This document shows positions 15,926 to 22,887 of a stretch of 24,334 nucleotides of DNA, piece by piece. The notes beneath the pieces are model-generated. The model did not search any database and had not been told where the DNA came from. It saw nothing but the letters and a program-made list of their open reading frames with translations. Each line of letters starts with the position of its first letter. Within the stretch, counting starts at the first letter, position 1. Position numbers and translations under genes: made by a program. This DNA is from a virus (taxonomy: Duplodnaviria > Caudoviricetes), in the IMG/VR virus record IMGVR_UViG_3300020045_005861, positions 1 to 24,334 of that record; one strand, written 5' to 3'.

Positions 15926-17635
15926 TTACACTGCCCAAGATCCGGCCTCCTCTGCTGCGACGGTATAGGAGTTTGCCGTGTCCCGCACGTTTTTGTCCTC
16001 ATATGCCAGCCATGCGTCGGACTCCTGGTTGGAGGAAAATCGTATTTCTCGGATTGAACCATTAAATATTTCTGCCGGGCTCGTATCGCCAGCACCGATG
16101 AACAGGGTATCTCTTGTTGACGGAATTGTTCCCGCAGAGCCCGTAGCTTTAGTGGCTCCGCCATTGTGGCCAACGGTTCGATTTCCACCAGTGGCGAATT
16201 TTACATATCCACCATGCCAGACGTGATTTGTTGGGTTGACCCCGGTGTTTAGCCACGACCCCCCGTTACTATCCCAAGTGCTTAGGTTGGTTCCCGATTG
16301 CGCTACTAGTGTTGATCTGTCGTTGCCTGTTCCGTTGACGCTCAGGCTAACTATGCCATCCTGTTCTGCGACCTCTGGGCTAAACCAGGCTCGCATGGTC
16401 CCGCTGGTGTAGTTTGTGGGCATTTGAGCCGACACCCACTGTGACCCACCAAACCGCCGACCATCTCTGGGTCGTAGTCGGCGCACAAATCGACTGCCCC
16501 CCCCACCATCCGTCAAAACATGCAGATCGGTTTCGTCGTATGCCAGACCCTCGATGTTTGGGTCGCCCGACGAGTGCCAGTAGACAACGCCGATTACGGT
16601 CCCGGTAAGCCCAACCTGATAGATTTGTCGCAGGCCCGATACATCGCTGGTGATGTAGTAATAACTGCCGACTCTGGTAATGCCCTGGATGTTGGGAATT
16701 GTTGATGACAGAGTTACATCGGCCTCGCGTGCGAACGTACCGAGGTTATACCTGTAGAGTTTATTATTTGTGTGGTAGGACGTTACAGTAACCCGGTTGT
16801 CGCTCGCCTCGACCACCAGGCCGGAGACCTCATGGCCTTGCGCGGACAGGTCATGTTCGGTGATATAGGCCAGAGTGGTGGCGTTAAATTCTGCAATGCA
16901 CATCCCGGTGGACGAAGCGCCGAGATAGGTTTCCATGGGTGCATACAAAACACTGTTATAAACGTCAATATCGCCTACATGGTCAGTGACGTTCGTCGTG
17001 GCTCCGCACGGGTTGGCATTTGTTGTCTGGACCACCCAGCTTGAGTTGAACCGCTTGAGTGTGTTTGTGTCGGATCCCCAATAACCACCGTCGCGAATAG
17101 CAATTCCCTGGTGACATCCGGTGTCTGACGACGTTGCAGCAATACCCAGCTGGCTGATCGGATAGGTTGCGGACGGCGAATAGGTAAATGTGTTTGCATT
17201 GCCCGTGCTTTCTGCCAGCGCAGCGGCTGCGGATGTGATTGGCATCCCGTGCAGGTGGACGACTGATTTGAAGTCCGATTTCCACACATTCGCCGGGGTG
17301 CGGGTTATAGTTTCGTCGGGGTTGCCGTAATACAGATAAACGATGGTGTTAGATACATGCGACAGGGTCGGGGCTTTGGCGTACAGACGGATCATCCTGT
17401 TATCCGGATCGTATAGTACCAGCTCCGTTTCCAGCCGTGTCCCGCTAGAATCGGTTACAACGATGTCGCTGCCGTCGGATTTTGCTTTGGTCCAAATGCC
17501 TGCATCGACATTGGCCTCGGTGATCAGAAGCGGAAAGTCAGTCAGAGTTGCCGTCAGGCTGGCAGACGCTACCGTCACTACCTGCCGGTAAGCAAAGCCG
17601 CTTGCGGCCGCAGCCCCCTGAAAGAACATCCCCAT
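15926..17635 (-). CDS. DUF2341 + beta-propeller + LamG/ConA-like lectin protein (putative receptor-binding appendage)
   Basis: The N-terminus has LTDFPLLI, AKSDGSDIVVTD and IVYLYYGN (DUF2341-like). Five (Q/E/S)G(I/L)-type blade repeats follow. The C-terminus has LFIG..FNGSIREIRFS..SDAW (LamG-like). Confidence 0.75.
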   Translation of the reverse strand: MGMFFQGAAAASGFAYRQVVTVASASLTATLTDFPLLITEANVDAGIWTKAKSDGSDIVVTDSSGTRLETELVLYDPDNRMIRLYAKAPTLSHVSNTIVYLYYGNPDETITRTPANVWKSDFKSVVHLHGMPITSAAAALAESTGNANTFTYSPSATYPISQLGIAATSSDTGCHQGIAIRDGGYWGSDTNTLKRFNSSWVVQTTNANPCGATTNVTDHVGDIDVYNSVLYAPMETYLGASSTGMCIAEFNATTLAYITEHDLSAQGHEVSGLVVEASDNRVTVTSYHTNNKLYRYNLGTFAREADVTLSSTIPNIQGITRVGSYYYITSDVSGLRQIYQVGLTGTVIGVVYWHSSGDPNIEGLAYDETDLHVLTDGGGGSRFVRRLRPRDGRRFGGSQWVSAQMPTNYTSGTMRAWFSPEVAEQDGIVSLSVNGTGNDRSTLVAQSGTNLSTWDSNGGSWLNTGVNPTNHVWHGGYVKFATGGNRTVGHNGGATKATGSAGTIPSTRDTLFIGAGDTSPAEIFNGSIREIRFSSNQESDAWLAYEDKNVRDTANSYTVAAEEAGSWAV

Positions 17636-18150
17636 TACTGCGTCACCTTCGCGCCGAGAATGTAGTTCGTCCCGTCGAATACCCCGGCTATATGATCTAT
17701 GGCACTCGCTGCGGTGGATAGTGTTGGTGTGTTTTTAAATACTGCATTCCACGTTGGTACTCGTGTGCCCGTCCCGTCCTGAGTGATGGTCAGCAGGAAT
17801 TCCGTATACTGCCCAGCACTCAAGGTTGGCGCGTTTGTGGGCGCTGCGATAGCCGCATTACCCGTCAACGTGGCGGTAAACCCGTGCTTCCCGCTCGACC
17901 AGCTCCATGTGACAGTTGTATCCTGACTTCCAATCGCATGTCTGGGCTTGATAATGGCCCCGGTGAATATCTGGTCTGCTACTCTGGCAAGTGCTGCAAT
18001 GGCCTGAGAAACCCTTTGTGCCGTCCACCGGCGTACACTCGTAGACGTTCCTGCCTCCGCGTCTGTCTGACTGACAACAGCAACCTGTGCGTTATACGCG
18101 GTCTCGATTTCGGCGTTATTTATCGCGCCGTACTTGAGTGCCCTTCTCAT
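17635..18150 (-). CDS. Fibre-like structural protein
   Basis: The start is revised to ATG 18150 (ATGA overlap), giving 171 aa. It has the fibre repeat SQTDAEAGTSTSVRRWTAQRVSQAI and LTITQDGTGTRVPTW..PTLSTAASAIDHI...DGTNY. Confidence 0.68.
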   Translation of the reverse strand: MRRALKYGAINNAEIETAYNAQVAVVSQTDAEAGTSTSVRRWTAQRVSQAIAALARVADQIFTGAIIKPRHAIGSQDTTVTWSWSSGKHGFTATLTGNAAIAAPTNAPTLSAGQYTEFLLTITQDGTGTRVPTWNAVFKNTPTLSTAASAIDHIAGVFDGTNYILGAKVTQ

Positions 18151-18308
18151 TTTTTCACCCCGGTAACAGCCCACAGTGCAGCAACGCCCCATGCGCAGGA
18201 TTTTACGAACTCCAGATAGTTAAACGGGAATTGTGCCCGGTCCTGCTCGATACAGTACGCAACCGCCCCACAGACAATCCACACCGCCAGAATTAATGAG
18301 CAAATCAT
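18147..18308 (-). CDS. Small membrane protein (53 aa, two hydrophobic segments)
   Basis: MICSLILAVWIVCGAVAYC...SCAWGVAALWAVTGVKK, coupled by ATGA at both ends. Confidence 0.55.
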   Translation of the reverse strand: MICSLILAVWIVCGAVAYCIEQDRAQFPFNYLEFVKSCAWGVAALWAVTGVKK

Positions 18309-19848: not shown

Positions 19849-19879
19849 AATAAAAAACCCCGGCTTCTGGCCAGGGTTT
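19849..19879 (-). terminator. Intrinsic terminator, tR'-like
   Basis: AAACCCTGGC-CAGAA-GCCGGGGTTT followed by TTTATT, between the late promoter and the first lysis gene. Confidence 0.8.
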
Positions 19880-19898
19880 GTTTTGGGGGCATTTCCCC

Positions 19899-19939
19899 AC
19901 ATTAGTAATAACTGTACAAAAGCGTTGGGGCGCTGTCAA
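19899..19939 (-). promoter_or_regulatory. Late promoter (pR'-like) with a -10-like pause element
   Basis: TTGACA (19939-19934), 17 nt, TACAGT (19916-19911), 6 nt, then TAATGT (19904-19899) and GGGG. Confidence 0.75.
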
Positions 19940-19984
19940 GTCACTTAAATTTGACTTACATCAAAAAAATAATGGCTTTCAGCC

Positions 19985-20013
19985 TTGCTCATAGTCCCGG
20001 ATAGGACTATAGT
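19985..20013 (+). promoter_or_regulatory. Sigma70 promoter of the + strand cassette with a palindromic operator
   Basis: TTGCTC, 17 nt, TATAGT. The spacer and -10 carry a perfect inverted repeat, ATAGTCC-cggata-GGACTAT (19991-20010). Confidence 0.72.
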
Positions 20014-20177
20014 TGCATTACAAGGTCAGGGGGGTCCTGGCCGAGAGGAGAAGGAAATGGCCTGGCCTGGCGCGGTTTCAGTACCGCGCAATCGGCTAGC
20101 CAATGACAACCTTGTCAAAGCCCCCTTCGGGGGGCACAGCGCCGATAATGGCGCATCTGCCTGCAGGAGGGCGCGAA

Positions 20178-20579
20178 ATGGCCACACTGGCCGAACTACA
20201 AAATGCCCAGCAAGCCGCCCATGCGGCCTGGGCAGCCTGCCCGGAGAAATCCCGTGCCGACAAAGCCGATAAGTCTCGGCTCAAAAGCCTGATGGCGGAG
20301 GCCACCAAAGCGGTGGCTGCGGCCAAGCGGGCCGCAGAGCCAGCGGCTCCGGTCGTGGACCAGGCGGCGCTAGCTGCCGCATTCCTGGCCCGGCAGGCCC
20401 AAAACGAGGCGGACGCAGCCCTGACGCGGCGCGTCTATGCCGCCTGGCGGCAGTACCAGACGGCCACGGACTGGCCGCGATGCGGTCAGGGCTGGCCCGC
20501 CAATTCGAGCGAGCGGGCTGCCGAGGCGCTGCTGCGCCAGCACTCTACCATGCTGGCCGAGAGCGGCTGGGATGAGTAG
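20178..20579 (+). CDS. Hypothetical Ala-rich helical protein (cassette gene 1)
   Basis: AGGAGG RBS 7 nt before ATG 20178; 133 aa. Confidence 0.72.
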   Translation: MATLAELQNAQQAAHAAWAACPEKSRADKADKSRLKSLMAEATKAVAAAKRAAEPAAPVVDQAALAAAFLARQAQNEADAALTRRVYAAWRQYQTATDWPRCGQGWPANSSERAAEALLRQHSTMLAESGWDE

Positions 20580-21147
20580 CGGCTGGATGGGCAACTACCC
20601 CGAGAGGGGTAGGGCGCGATTTTCGCCAAAAACCGGCCCGACCGAGCTGGTCGCGCCAAAAAGCGCCTTTCAGCCGGATTCGTCCGGCGGATACGGCGTC
20701 CCGTCTGTGACGGGCGACCGTCACGACCAGGTGGCCAACGAGGCACCGGAGTGGTTCCGACTAGTTGTGAGCGCGATCTGTGAGAGCGAGTCGAGCCAGA
20801 GGCTTGTCGCCCGACAGATTGGCGCTGCCGGAAAGTACCGTTTTTGGACGGTGCCCGCCGGCATTAGTTCGGCAAAAGAGCTTTTCGCGGCAGCCGATGC
20901 CATGTGTGCCGCACACAAAGACGCCTGCGCGGCATATGTTGCCAAAGCCCGCGCCGACGAGAACGCGGCGAACCTGGCCTTCCGGCTGAGCCGGATCGCG
21001 CTGTTGCATGAGCGCGTCGCTCGCCGGACCGATGACGTGATTGTCATCGAAGAACGCCAGGAAACGGGCACCCTCGTCATAATGGATGGCGATAATAGGA
21101 CGTGGGAGCTGTCCACATTTTACCCAGACAAAGAGGTAATTTTATGA
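20572..21147 (+). CDS. Hypothetical protein (cassette gene 2)
   Basis: ATG 20572 overlaps the gene 1 stop and the TGA is coupled to gene 3; 191 aa. Confidence 0.65.
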   Translation: MSSGWMGNYPERGRARFSPKTGPTELVAPKSAFQPDSSGGYGVPSVTGDRHDQVANEAPEWFRLVVSAICESESSQRLVARQIGAAGKYRFWTVPAGISSAKELFAAADAMCAAHKDACAAYVAKARADENAANLAFRLSRIALLHERVARRTDDVIVIEERQETGTLVIMDGDNRTWELSTFYPDKEVIL

Positions 21148-21443
21148 AATTTGCATTTGTTTCGCGCCACGCTCCGACCCCGGAGCAATTCGCCCTGGCA
21201 ACTGCCCAGGACATCGAGCTGATTCCGGTCGGGGATCAGGATGCATTTAGCATCACCTGGGCTGCGGTCCAGGATCACCCGGCGGCCCCGTTTGACGGCG
21301 CGGTTGTGGTCCACCCGGCGGCGGCCTTGCGGCTGGCCCCGATGATGCTGGTCGGCGTGTATGAAAACGCCAACCGGGCTCCGGAGGGTGAAAGGCCATC
21401 GTTTACGGCGGTGGCTCTGCACATCTACAACCGGGTGGATTGA
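21144..21443 (+). CDS. Small Rossmann-like SRH-motif protein; candidate Csx15/16/20-like ring nuclease (cassette gene 3)
   Basis: GAGG RBS; 99 aa: MKFAFVSRHAPTPEQ...GAVVVHPAAALRL...VGVYENANRAPEGERPSF. The CDS is secure but the function is inferred. Confidence 0.6.
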   Translation: MKFAFVSRHAPTPEQFALATAQDIELIPVGDQDAFSITWAAVQDHPAAPFDGAVVVHPAAALRLAPMMLVGVYENANRAPEGERPSFTAVALHIYNRVD

Positions 21444-21751
21444 TGAAAATCACCATCCCGGAAAACGTCGGCTTTGCCGACCTGAAATTAACACGCGACC
21501 CAACCACCGGCGCGGTGGAGTTTGCCTGGCAGCCCATCCAGGCGATCTGTACCGCGTCGGGCATCGACCCGGCCATTTTTACCGACAGCCACGAGGACAC
21601 AGTGGCGGGGTTGATCGTGCAGTGGTATGGGGCGCATCGCGCCCAGGGCGGCGCCAGCGACCCGGTGGCGGAAATCCTGATCGCCGAGGTAGAGGCAGAG
21701 GACACCTACGGCCCAGAGCACGATCAGCCCGGCAGCGGGCGTGTACAATGA
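21440..21751 (+). CDS. Acidic hypothetical protein (cassette gene 4)
   Basis: 103 aa, overlapping both neighbours by 4 nt; contains FADLKLTRD..EDTVAGLIVQWYGAHR..GGASDPVAE. Confidence 0.72.
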   Translation: MMKITIPENVGFADLKLTRDPTTGAVEFAWQPIQAICTASGIDPAIFTDSHEDTVAGLIVQWYGAHRAQGGASDPVAEILIAEVEAEDTYGPEHDQPGSGRVQ

Positions 21752-22074
21752 GCAGCCTGTCGAATTACACATCCCTGCTCGACTGGGGCATCAACGCCCA
21801 CATCCTGGAGGACACGCCGACAAACATCAGTCGGAAACGGGCGCTGCTGGCCGAGCTGAACCGGCACTGCGGCACTAACTACAGCGAGCAGCACCTGAAT
21901 AGCTGGTACGCGGGGCGCAAAAAAACCCCGGAACCGGTGTGGCGGTACCTGTGCTGGAACCTGATCGAGTGCGAACTCGGCTACGACCAGCCGGAGCTGG
22001 CGGGCGAGTTGCTGCGGTTGATGGGGTTGGAATTACCGTCGGACGCAGTCCCCGCATTTCAGGCAGCCGATTAA
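21748..22074 (+). CDS. Putative HTH (Cro/XRE-like) regulator (cassette gene 5)
   Basis: ATG 21748 (ATGA overlap); 108 aa. RALLAELNRHCGTNYSEQHLNSWYAGRKKTP fits an XRE-type recognition helix ending in W-x-x-G-x-x-x-x-P. Confidence 0.6.
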   Translation: MSSLSNYTSLLDWGINAHILEDTPTNISRKRALLAELNRHCGTNYSEQHLNSWYAGRKKTPEPVWRYLCWNLIECELGYDQPELAGELLRLMGLELPSDAVPAFQAAD

Positions 22075-22887
22075 CTCCCCTGGCCCGCCGGGCGACATGG
22101 TGACAAGCTCATCTCCCGGCCATTCCGGGGTTCCCGTCCAGGTCTGGCCCATGGCCTGGCCTTGTTTCATCTCCCCTTCGCGCAACCGCTCGATGGCCTC
22201 GGCCACCGGTTGCAATGCCCGGCGGTCGATGTCGTCCAGCACTTCCACGATAATCGATTTCCTGCGGCCCCAGGCCCTCGTTGGCACAAACTCGCTGCGA
22301 TCGACCCCCAGCATTTCGGCCAGCCGGTAGTCGGTGTATTTCCCTCGCCCGTTGCGGAATCGCTGGGCAGTATCGGCAATCAGGTGCTGGATCAGCTCCA
22401 GGATCTTCACGATCTCACCGAGCGTTGCCGCCTTTTTGCCCTCGCGTGCGTCGTACCGGTCGATGCCGTACTCCAAAACTATCCGCTCGTCGTGTGCGGT
22501 GCCGTTGTCGGTGTAGCAGATCGTCCCAAACGCTCGGCACTCTGCGGGCAATTTCTCGATGACCGAGAGTATCCGCCCAGCCTCCATCCCATCCACGATC
22601 CGCCAGTCGTTGTCCCGCAACCCGCTGTTGGTCTGGGTGGCGGTGATCGCCCCCTTTTTTGCCAGCACGGCCGGGCGCTTGCACGTGGCCTGGCATTTGT
22701 CGCACCGCCACACCCTGGCCCCGCCTTCGCCGAAGGCATCCTTTAACGATTCTCGGGCGTGGCATGACGGGCAATACAGCATTGGCGTCTTGCCGGTGCT
22801 GTCGAGCAGCCCAAAGTCTCTCAGCAGCCCCAGGCCGTACTGTGTGTGGACCTCAGTCCATGCGTGGCGGGCGGTATGGAATCTCAT
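22033..22887 (-). CDS. Q-like late antiterminator / activator with a Cys4 zinc finger
   Basis: The start is revised to ATG 22887 (MRFHTARHAW; ATGA overlap with the resolvase), giving 284 aa. It is the last nin-region gene before the late promoter. It contains AGRILSVIEKLP...FG..CY and the HTH-like DYRLAEMLGVDRSEF. Confidence 0.62.
   Translation of the reverse strand: MRFHTARHAWTEVHTQYGLGLLRDFGLLDSTGKTPMLYCPSCHARESLKDAFGEGGARVWRCDKCQATCKRPAVLAKKGAITATQTNSGLRDNDWRIVDGMEAGRILSVIEKLPAECRAFGTICYTDNGTAHDERIVLEYGIDRYDAREGKKAATLGEIVKILELIQHLIADTAQRFRNGRGKYTDYRLAEMLGVDRSEFVPTRAWGRRKSIIVEVLDDIDRRALQPVAEAIERLREGEMKQGQAMGQTWTGTPEWPGDELVTMSPGGPGELIGCLKCGDCVRR

Follow-up and report, generated by a model that had tools for sequence, protein, structure and literature searches.

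Introduction

AcrIC6 (WP_080050315.1) is described in the accessible text of PMC7913775 as a weak, aca4-linked inhibitor of type I-C and type I-E systems which blocks I-E CRISPRi; the wording there puts the acrIC6 gene in P. aeruginosa, and acrIC6 is also placed beside acrIC7 in Stutzerimonas stutzeri. Operons with acrIC6 (acrIC7-acrIC6-aca10 and the aca4-linked ones; PMC7913775, PMC9410881) share with the locus described here small coupled genes, an AcrIC6-type domain adjoining a terminal HTH gene (a candidate one here), and a repeat overlapping the promoter. The second group of relevant proteins acts on cA4, the alarm molecule of type III systems: Csx16 and Csx20 degrade cA4, according to the part of 10.1101/2024.09.24.614671 that was consulted, and csx20 homologues occur in operons repressed by the RHH protein Aca14 via a repeat over the -10 box, according to excerpts of PMC13551039. 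Virus-encoded removal of cA4 is furthermore the role of AcrIII-1 (DUF1874/STIV B116-like) and of a viral SAVED ring nuclease (10.1101/2025.07.01.662501).

The window analysed here (the whole stretch of DNA, 24,334 bases) contains tail, head, terminase and lysis genes, all on the - strand as predicted by Pfam and PHROG scans, and one cassette of five small genes on the + strand. The cassette is likely to serve anti-defence, and we favour, with somewhat less confidence, its interpretation as a tailed-phage anti-CRISPR operon with transcription of its own, in which gene 4, gene 3 and gene 5 have the roles proposed below. The cassette architecture is already known; new here are the gene 3 family and the AcrIC6 core devoid of the RHH-like part.

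Genome context and layout of the cassette

The features of the locus are as follows.

19855..19939, - strand: late promoter TTGACA-17-TACAGT (19939-19911), then terminator (19879-19855), from the consensus scan; back to back with the cassette promoter
19963..20013, + strand: predicted cassette promoter; A-rich tract 19963-19973, -35 box TTGCTC 19985-19990, 17-nt spacer, -10 box TATAGT 20008-20013
19991..20010, no strand: candidate operator; ATAGTCC-N6-GGACTAT, an inverted repeat with perfect 7-bp arms lying across spacer and -10 box
20020..20177, + strand: structured leader, 158 nt
20178..20579, + strand: gene 1, 133 aa; shares a C-terminal motif with a small gene found ahead of gene 3 homologues in other phages
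20572..21147, + strand: gene 2, up to 191 aa; start uncertain
21144..21443, + strand: gene 3, 99 aa; candidate cA4 ring nuclease, a small protein with a Rossmann-like fold and a relative of the Csx16/Csx20 ring nucleases
21443..21751, + strand: gene 4, 102 aa; corresponds to the AcrIC6-family C-terminal domain on its own, without the N-terminal RHH-like part
21748..22074, + strand: gene 5, 108 aa; candidate repressor; the final 42 nt are shared with the end of the Q-like gene
22033..22887, - strand: Q-like antiterminator gene (phrog_304, E 1.3e-6; phrog_3373, E 2.8e-15), convergent with the cassette

Five ORFs fill positions 20178-22074 with stop/start overlaps of 8, 4, 1 and 4 nt; their frames are intact and coupled, with GC3 values of 0.70-0.83. 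Their position between a Q-like gene and a late promoter, as given in a preliminary description of this DNA, was confirmed. All annotated genes flanking the cassette are on the - strand, with a RuvC-like gene and the Q-like gene at the right side of the window. Since its direction is opposite to that of the phage operons, the cassette would require a promoter of its own for the host sigma70 polymerase, and would probably be transcribed early. The promoter and terminator on the - strand fit a Q-controlled late promoter, by analogy with the pR'/tR' logic of phage lambda. No relatives of the Q-like gene were found in the viral contigs searched and the closest annotated terminases have 47-51% identity, so that these searches gave no related phage in which to compare the presence or absence of the cassette. 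No strong terminator between gene 5 and the convergent Q-like gene was obtained in the terminator scan of the window.

According to the preliminary description, lambdoid phages usually have almost nothing at this site; as a place for cargo of this type it is, however, not out of the ordinary: relatives of gene 3 or gene 4 are located just before the small terminase gene in four other loci (L027, L036, L061, L083). A layout resembling that of the window was observed in L088 (3847-6849), where a cluster of small genes ends in a gene 3 relative and converges on an opposite-strand gene that is Q-like by eye (no PHROG match). Elsewhere in the window (15926-18192), lysis genes and small terminase are separated by genes for a DUF2341/laminin G protein of 569 aa and a further protein of 185 aa, an odd position for an adhesin-like gene.

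The cassette promoter (TTGCTC-17-TATAGT, 19985-20013) has 3 of 6 consensus bases in the -35 and 5 of 6 in the -10 box, together 8 of 12, and is below the threshold of the consensus scan; on its sequence it is predicted to be a promoter of middling quality, weaker than claimed earlier. The inverted repeat was confirmed as a perfect 7-bp repeat that overlaps this promoter; shuffling the 51 nt of the promoter stretch produced such a repeat 17 times in 1000, and the whole window contains 18 arm pairs of the same kind. It is unlike the Aca1, Aca2 and Aca10 sites quoted in the accessible text of PMC9410881. The promoter-plus-repeat pattern was also tried as support and rejected, its three viral matches being about chance by our estimate, with no gene 5 relative beside them. 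In an unrelated phage (L141:3001-3100), the same repeat is found inside a good promoter of the sigma70 type that precedes a gene of 313 aa; this was regarded as chance.

The leader forms a chain of short hairpins with one UUCG loop at 20126 (z -3.86 for 20020-20200), and contains a strong Shine-Dalgarno sequence and an ATG at 20057 opening a 71-codon ORF that overlaps gene 1 out of frame (20040-20272); the starts of this ORF and of gene 1 have the common context GAAATGGCC. An RNA anti-CRISPR was considered and found no support, the Rfam match being at chance level and over the late terminator.

Hairpins are in excess at positions 19985-21147, with 10 perfect repeats of at least 7 bp against 1.1 expected (0 of 1000 shuffles), partly within coding sequence, and with four of the six UUCG/GNRA-capped hairpins of the window's + strand. 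In the 1.2 kb preceding gene 3 relatives, 4.0 hairpins were counted against 0.7 expected, and about 1.4-2.5 further off (32 loci; 17 of 50 dropped as near-duplicates or chance); for gene 4 relatives (24 loci), the values were 2.7 against 0.8, and about 1.1-1.8 further off. Both counts (loci L008-L085) are relative to a base-shuffle control. Stabilisation of mRNA, or a shield from RNA-targeting CRISPR, are guesses at what this excess might mean.

Gene 4, a probable AcrIC6-type domain

Gene 4 had been listed as an uncharacterised inhibitor candidate in the preliminary description, which has to be corrected: its sequence matches residues 47-144 of protein P0273 (E 3e-33), the two being 53% identical across 99 aa. 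P0273, encoded in viral locus L067, has the accession AQZ95447.1 (Halopseudomonas phragmitis), and the adjacent AQZ95448.1 and AQZ95450.1 correspond to WP_080050316.1 and WP_080050318.1. Because these accessions are consecutive with WP_080050315.1, P0273 is very probably AcrIC6, on the basis of accession order and locus context and not of a direct sequence record. By way of P0273 as the likely AcrIC6, the cassette has in gene 4 a homologue of a validated Acr, and the homology extends over the C-terminal domain. The full-length architecture of AcrIC6 is not present in gene 4, which begins at the domain boundary, with gene 3 occupying the upstream DNA, and is in this respect different from the known acr-aca operons with acrIC6, i.e. 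by lacking the N-terminal 46 residues of P0273; the assignment of such N-terminal segments as RHH was made by eye, and Pfam gives no match for them. Whether the gene 4 domain without the RHH-like part inhibits type I CRISPR is about an even call.

A word-index search yielded a single close relative (73%), which is extended at its N-terminus, and the full HMMER scan yielded 360 clusters at E<=0.001; stand-alone proteins of about 85-125 aa make up the majority of the 150 best relatives. No match was found among annotated phages. The structural model (pLDDT 89) gave no match against PDB, and AcrIF25 did not come up. At the start of gene 4 (21440-21559), an unusually stable fold is predicted on the + strand only (z -5.3 versus -0.7), which could gate translation coupling from gene 3.

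The genomic context of the gene 4 family was evaluated for 29 viral loci, of which 26 were laid out after removal of three duplicates. An RHH-like N-terminus is present in at least 11 of the 26 (by eye; no Pfam match), and HTH-type neighbours, among them Aca2 in L078, were found in eight (40 neighbours chosen by eye). The preliminary description had proposed to look for homologues of gene 4 beside known Acr or anti-defence genes, and these were indeed found: an AcrIF11 homologue in L067 (PDB 6KYF, E 4.6e-28) and an AcrIII-1-like gene in plasmid locus L002. L067 also encodes a TrfB/KorA HTH protein, and we take Aca4 to be of this HTH type. The gene 4 relative in L075 is from Stutzerimonas stutzeri, and the gene upstream of it is presumably acrIC7. 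Among 30 longer gene 4 relatives scanned, three are fusions with Aca2 (PF08965) and two are fusions with other HTH domains; the proteins with Aca2 and the AcrIC6-type domain in one chain (P0126, P0130, P0215) are, by their sequences, candidates for self-regulating Acrs. The domain is frequently encoded last or next to last in its cassette.

Seven plasmids also matched gene 4. A Nitrosomonas plasmid (L002:3349-4668) carries a gene without assigned function, an RHH-like/AcrIC6-type gene and, directly after it, the STIV B116-like/AcrIII-1 gene (PF08960, E 1e-10); this is an unannotated acr operon, in which AcrIII-1 adjoins the gene 4 relative as gene 3 adjoins gene 4 here. In an IncN plasmid (L004:3652-4299), korA (KorA/TrfB) is followed by a gene 4 relative that is split over two reading frames. 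No acr/aca-type context was seen in the Delftia and Marinobacter loci.

Gene 3, a Csx16/Csx20-like protein

The earlier list of inhibitor candidates (genes 1, 2 and 4) omitted gene 3, which as a Csx16/Csx20-like protein is the most interesting candidate of the cassette. Its family comprises 202 homologues, mainly in phages; R8, H9, Q15, G30 and D31 are invariant in 120 of 120 relatives, gene 3 retains all 11 invariant columns of the family, and the S-R-H motif common to the family and Csx16 is near invariant. The likeness to Csx16 comprises a Rossmann-like fold of about 100 aa, the conserved N-terminal S/T-R-H motif (strand-S-R-H-helix), a central strand-proline-helix motif, and profile similarity: against 25 natural Csx16 proteins the gene 3 profile scored 28.3 versus 11.5 +/- 1.9, reached by 0 of 40 shuffles (maximum 17), in both local and global mode. 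Against Csx20 the profile scored at chance level, and Csx16 versus Csx20 fails the same test too.

The likeness to Csx20 (NF040559, PF27247) is one of whole-chain fold, with a TM of 0.66 to Csx20-family models. The model of gene 3 (pLDDT 94.5) matched the PF27247 MJ1673 clusters (Csx20) of the Atlas with TM 0.65-0.66 over 90-93 residues, a match of a predicted model to predicted models with a score below the Atlas bar for family naming. The gene 3 family differs from both Csx16 and Csx20 by its own motifs, GDxDAF and GVFENxNR, and by its distribution mainly in phages. The HMMs for Csx16 (TIGR02620) and Csx20 (NF040559) both miss gene 3, for which no NCBIfam family was obtained at E<=1; the 120 relatives gave scattered weak matches only against Pfam, the model gave no specific match against PDB and BFVD (no Csx16 or Csx20 chain among the entries listed), and no match was found among annotated phages. 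AcrIII-1 and the viral SAVED ring nuclease are alike gene 3 in predicted role; no match to PF08960 (AcrIII-1) and no sequence relation to either was found. Gene 3 may degrade cA4, with the chances about balanced, and by analogy would do so as a homodimer. The name Crn5 was considered for Csx16/Csx20 and rejected, since supplement file 1 of PMC12669027 assigns it to a SAVED protein. Our literature search found no paper characterising a phage Csx16/Csx20-like enzyme; the supplementary tables of PMC12409355 and the figures of PMC13551039 could contain members.

Gene 3 relatives occur in varied genomic surroundings. By Pfam, one of the two genes after the gene 3 relative encodes an HTH or RHH protein in 4 of 49 viral loci (L030, L041, L043, L056), and RHH-like genes were recognised by eye in L027, L036 and L037; in two groups of loci, the surrounding genes are of the helicase, ThyX-like or recombination kind. 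A scan of 54-55 neighbours gave no known Acr, and no cas genes were recognised by eye near the six genome matches. Genes 3 and 4 do not occur together in any of the 49 gene 3 loci or 29 gene 4 loci. In 10 of the 49 loci (L008, L009, L014, L016, L018, L020, L025, L027, L040, L056), the gene 3 relative is preceded at a distance of about 600 nt by the gene of a conserved protein of about 150 aa with no Pfam, NCBIfam or PHROG match, a candidate for a further anti-defence gene.

Genes 1, 2 and 5

None of the five cassette proteins has a meaningful match in Pfam, PHROG or NCBIfam. Locus L001 was a chance match and was dropped. With tblastn and phmmer, the C-terminal motif of gene 1 was detected ahead of gene 3 relatives, at E 7e-5 in L023 and as weak matches in L044-L046; metagenome contigs gave no match. 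For gene 2 no homologue was found in viral contigs or in the three family libraries; hairpins with GAGA, UUCG and GCGA loops cluster at 20595-20724, and on this basis the 5' third of the ORF may be non-coding. Both genes are inferred to be further inhibitors by association only.

Gene 5 had been described as HTH-like. A signal of the Xre/Aca type is present at residues 47-72, and it is weak (3.3 bits against the recognition helix of a 13-sequence Aca-like HTH profile, reached by 13 of 1000 shuffles); Pfam, PHROG, NCBIfam and PDB gave no match, and gene 5 matches no Aca family in the libraries scanned, unlike the regulators of known acr-aca operons. The homologue search found only gene 5 itself, with none in metagenome contigs and chance-level rows from annotated phages. 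A role as Aca is plausible from the terminal position of the gene and the promoter repeat, and binding to this repeat is about as probable as its opposite.

Discussion

The anti-defence reading of the cassette gained homology support, with gene 4 as an AcrIC6-type and gene 3 as a Csx16/Csx20-like protein. Because gene 4 is a relative of the likely AcrIC6 and gene 3 is predicted to destroy cA4, the cassette likely disarms two kinds of immunity. The host sigma70 polymerase would transcribe the cassette early; gene 3 would then remove the type III alarm molecule cA4, gene 4 would partially block type I surveillance, with I-C/I-E interference weakened, and gene 5 would finally shut off the promoter through the inverted repeat. 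A parallel on the side of gene 3 is the csx20-aca14 operon of Pasteurella multocida (excerpts of PMC13551039), which likewise has a Csx20-like gene in an anti-defence operon and an inverted repeat over the -10 box; the autoregulation of that operon is only a candidate property here, and its regulator is an RHH protein, whereas gene 5 is a candidate HTH protein.

Within an anti-defence cassette, gene 3 might bind or cleave another nucleotide signal, as a sponge or as a nuclease of the CBASS/Thoeris type, instead of acting as a cA4 ring nuclease. The missing match to the Csx16 and Csx20 HMMs and an alignment with Csx16 that is limited to the N-terminal part point this way, as does the much higher abundance of the gene 3 family in phages, given that the consulted part of PMC12409355 reports Csx16 and Csx20 in 2 and 4 of 28,114 genomes. 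However, gene 3 shares its near-invariant motif with Csx16 and its whole-chain fold with Csx20, and both of these families cleave cA4; we consider another signal unlikely. The alternative for gene 4, that its domain is no inhibitor but works in regulation alongside Aca-type DNA-binding domains, with genes 4 and 5 jointly regulating the cassette, is less likely still: it would agree with the fusions to Aca2, to other HTHs and to RHH-like segments, with the frequent position at or near the cassette end, and with the weak activity of AcrIC6 in the accessible text of PMC7913775, whereas AcrIC6 did block I-E CRISPRi in that source, the best relatives mostly stand alone, and other Acrs, e.g. AcrIF25, have built-in regulator domains, as stated in excerpts of PMC13551039.

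The least probable reading, to which we give little weight, is a mixed accessory cassette, partly decayed or with another early function (host takeover, or antisense damping of Q) and with no working anti-CRISPR role. Genes 2 and 5 as orphans, the moderate promoter, the lack of a strong terminator before the Q-like gene and the many gene 3 relatives among replication genes are what it can draw on; they are opposed by the intact, coupled frames with their GC3 values, by the complete set of invariant columns in gene 3, and by the repeated acr/aca context of the gene 4 family. The anti-CRISPR operon is retained as the preferred explanation.

More tentatively, and as a reading we hold to be possible but somewhat doubtful, gene 3 might found a third lineage of the Csx16/Csx20 fold that is borne by mobile elements, is invisible to current HMMs, has at least 200 members and consists of anti-type III ring nucleases, here paired with a minimal AcrIC6 core and a candidate Aca against type I and type III systems.
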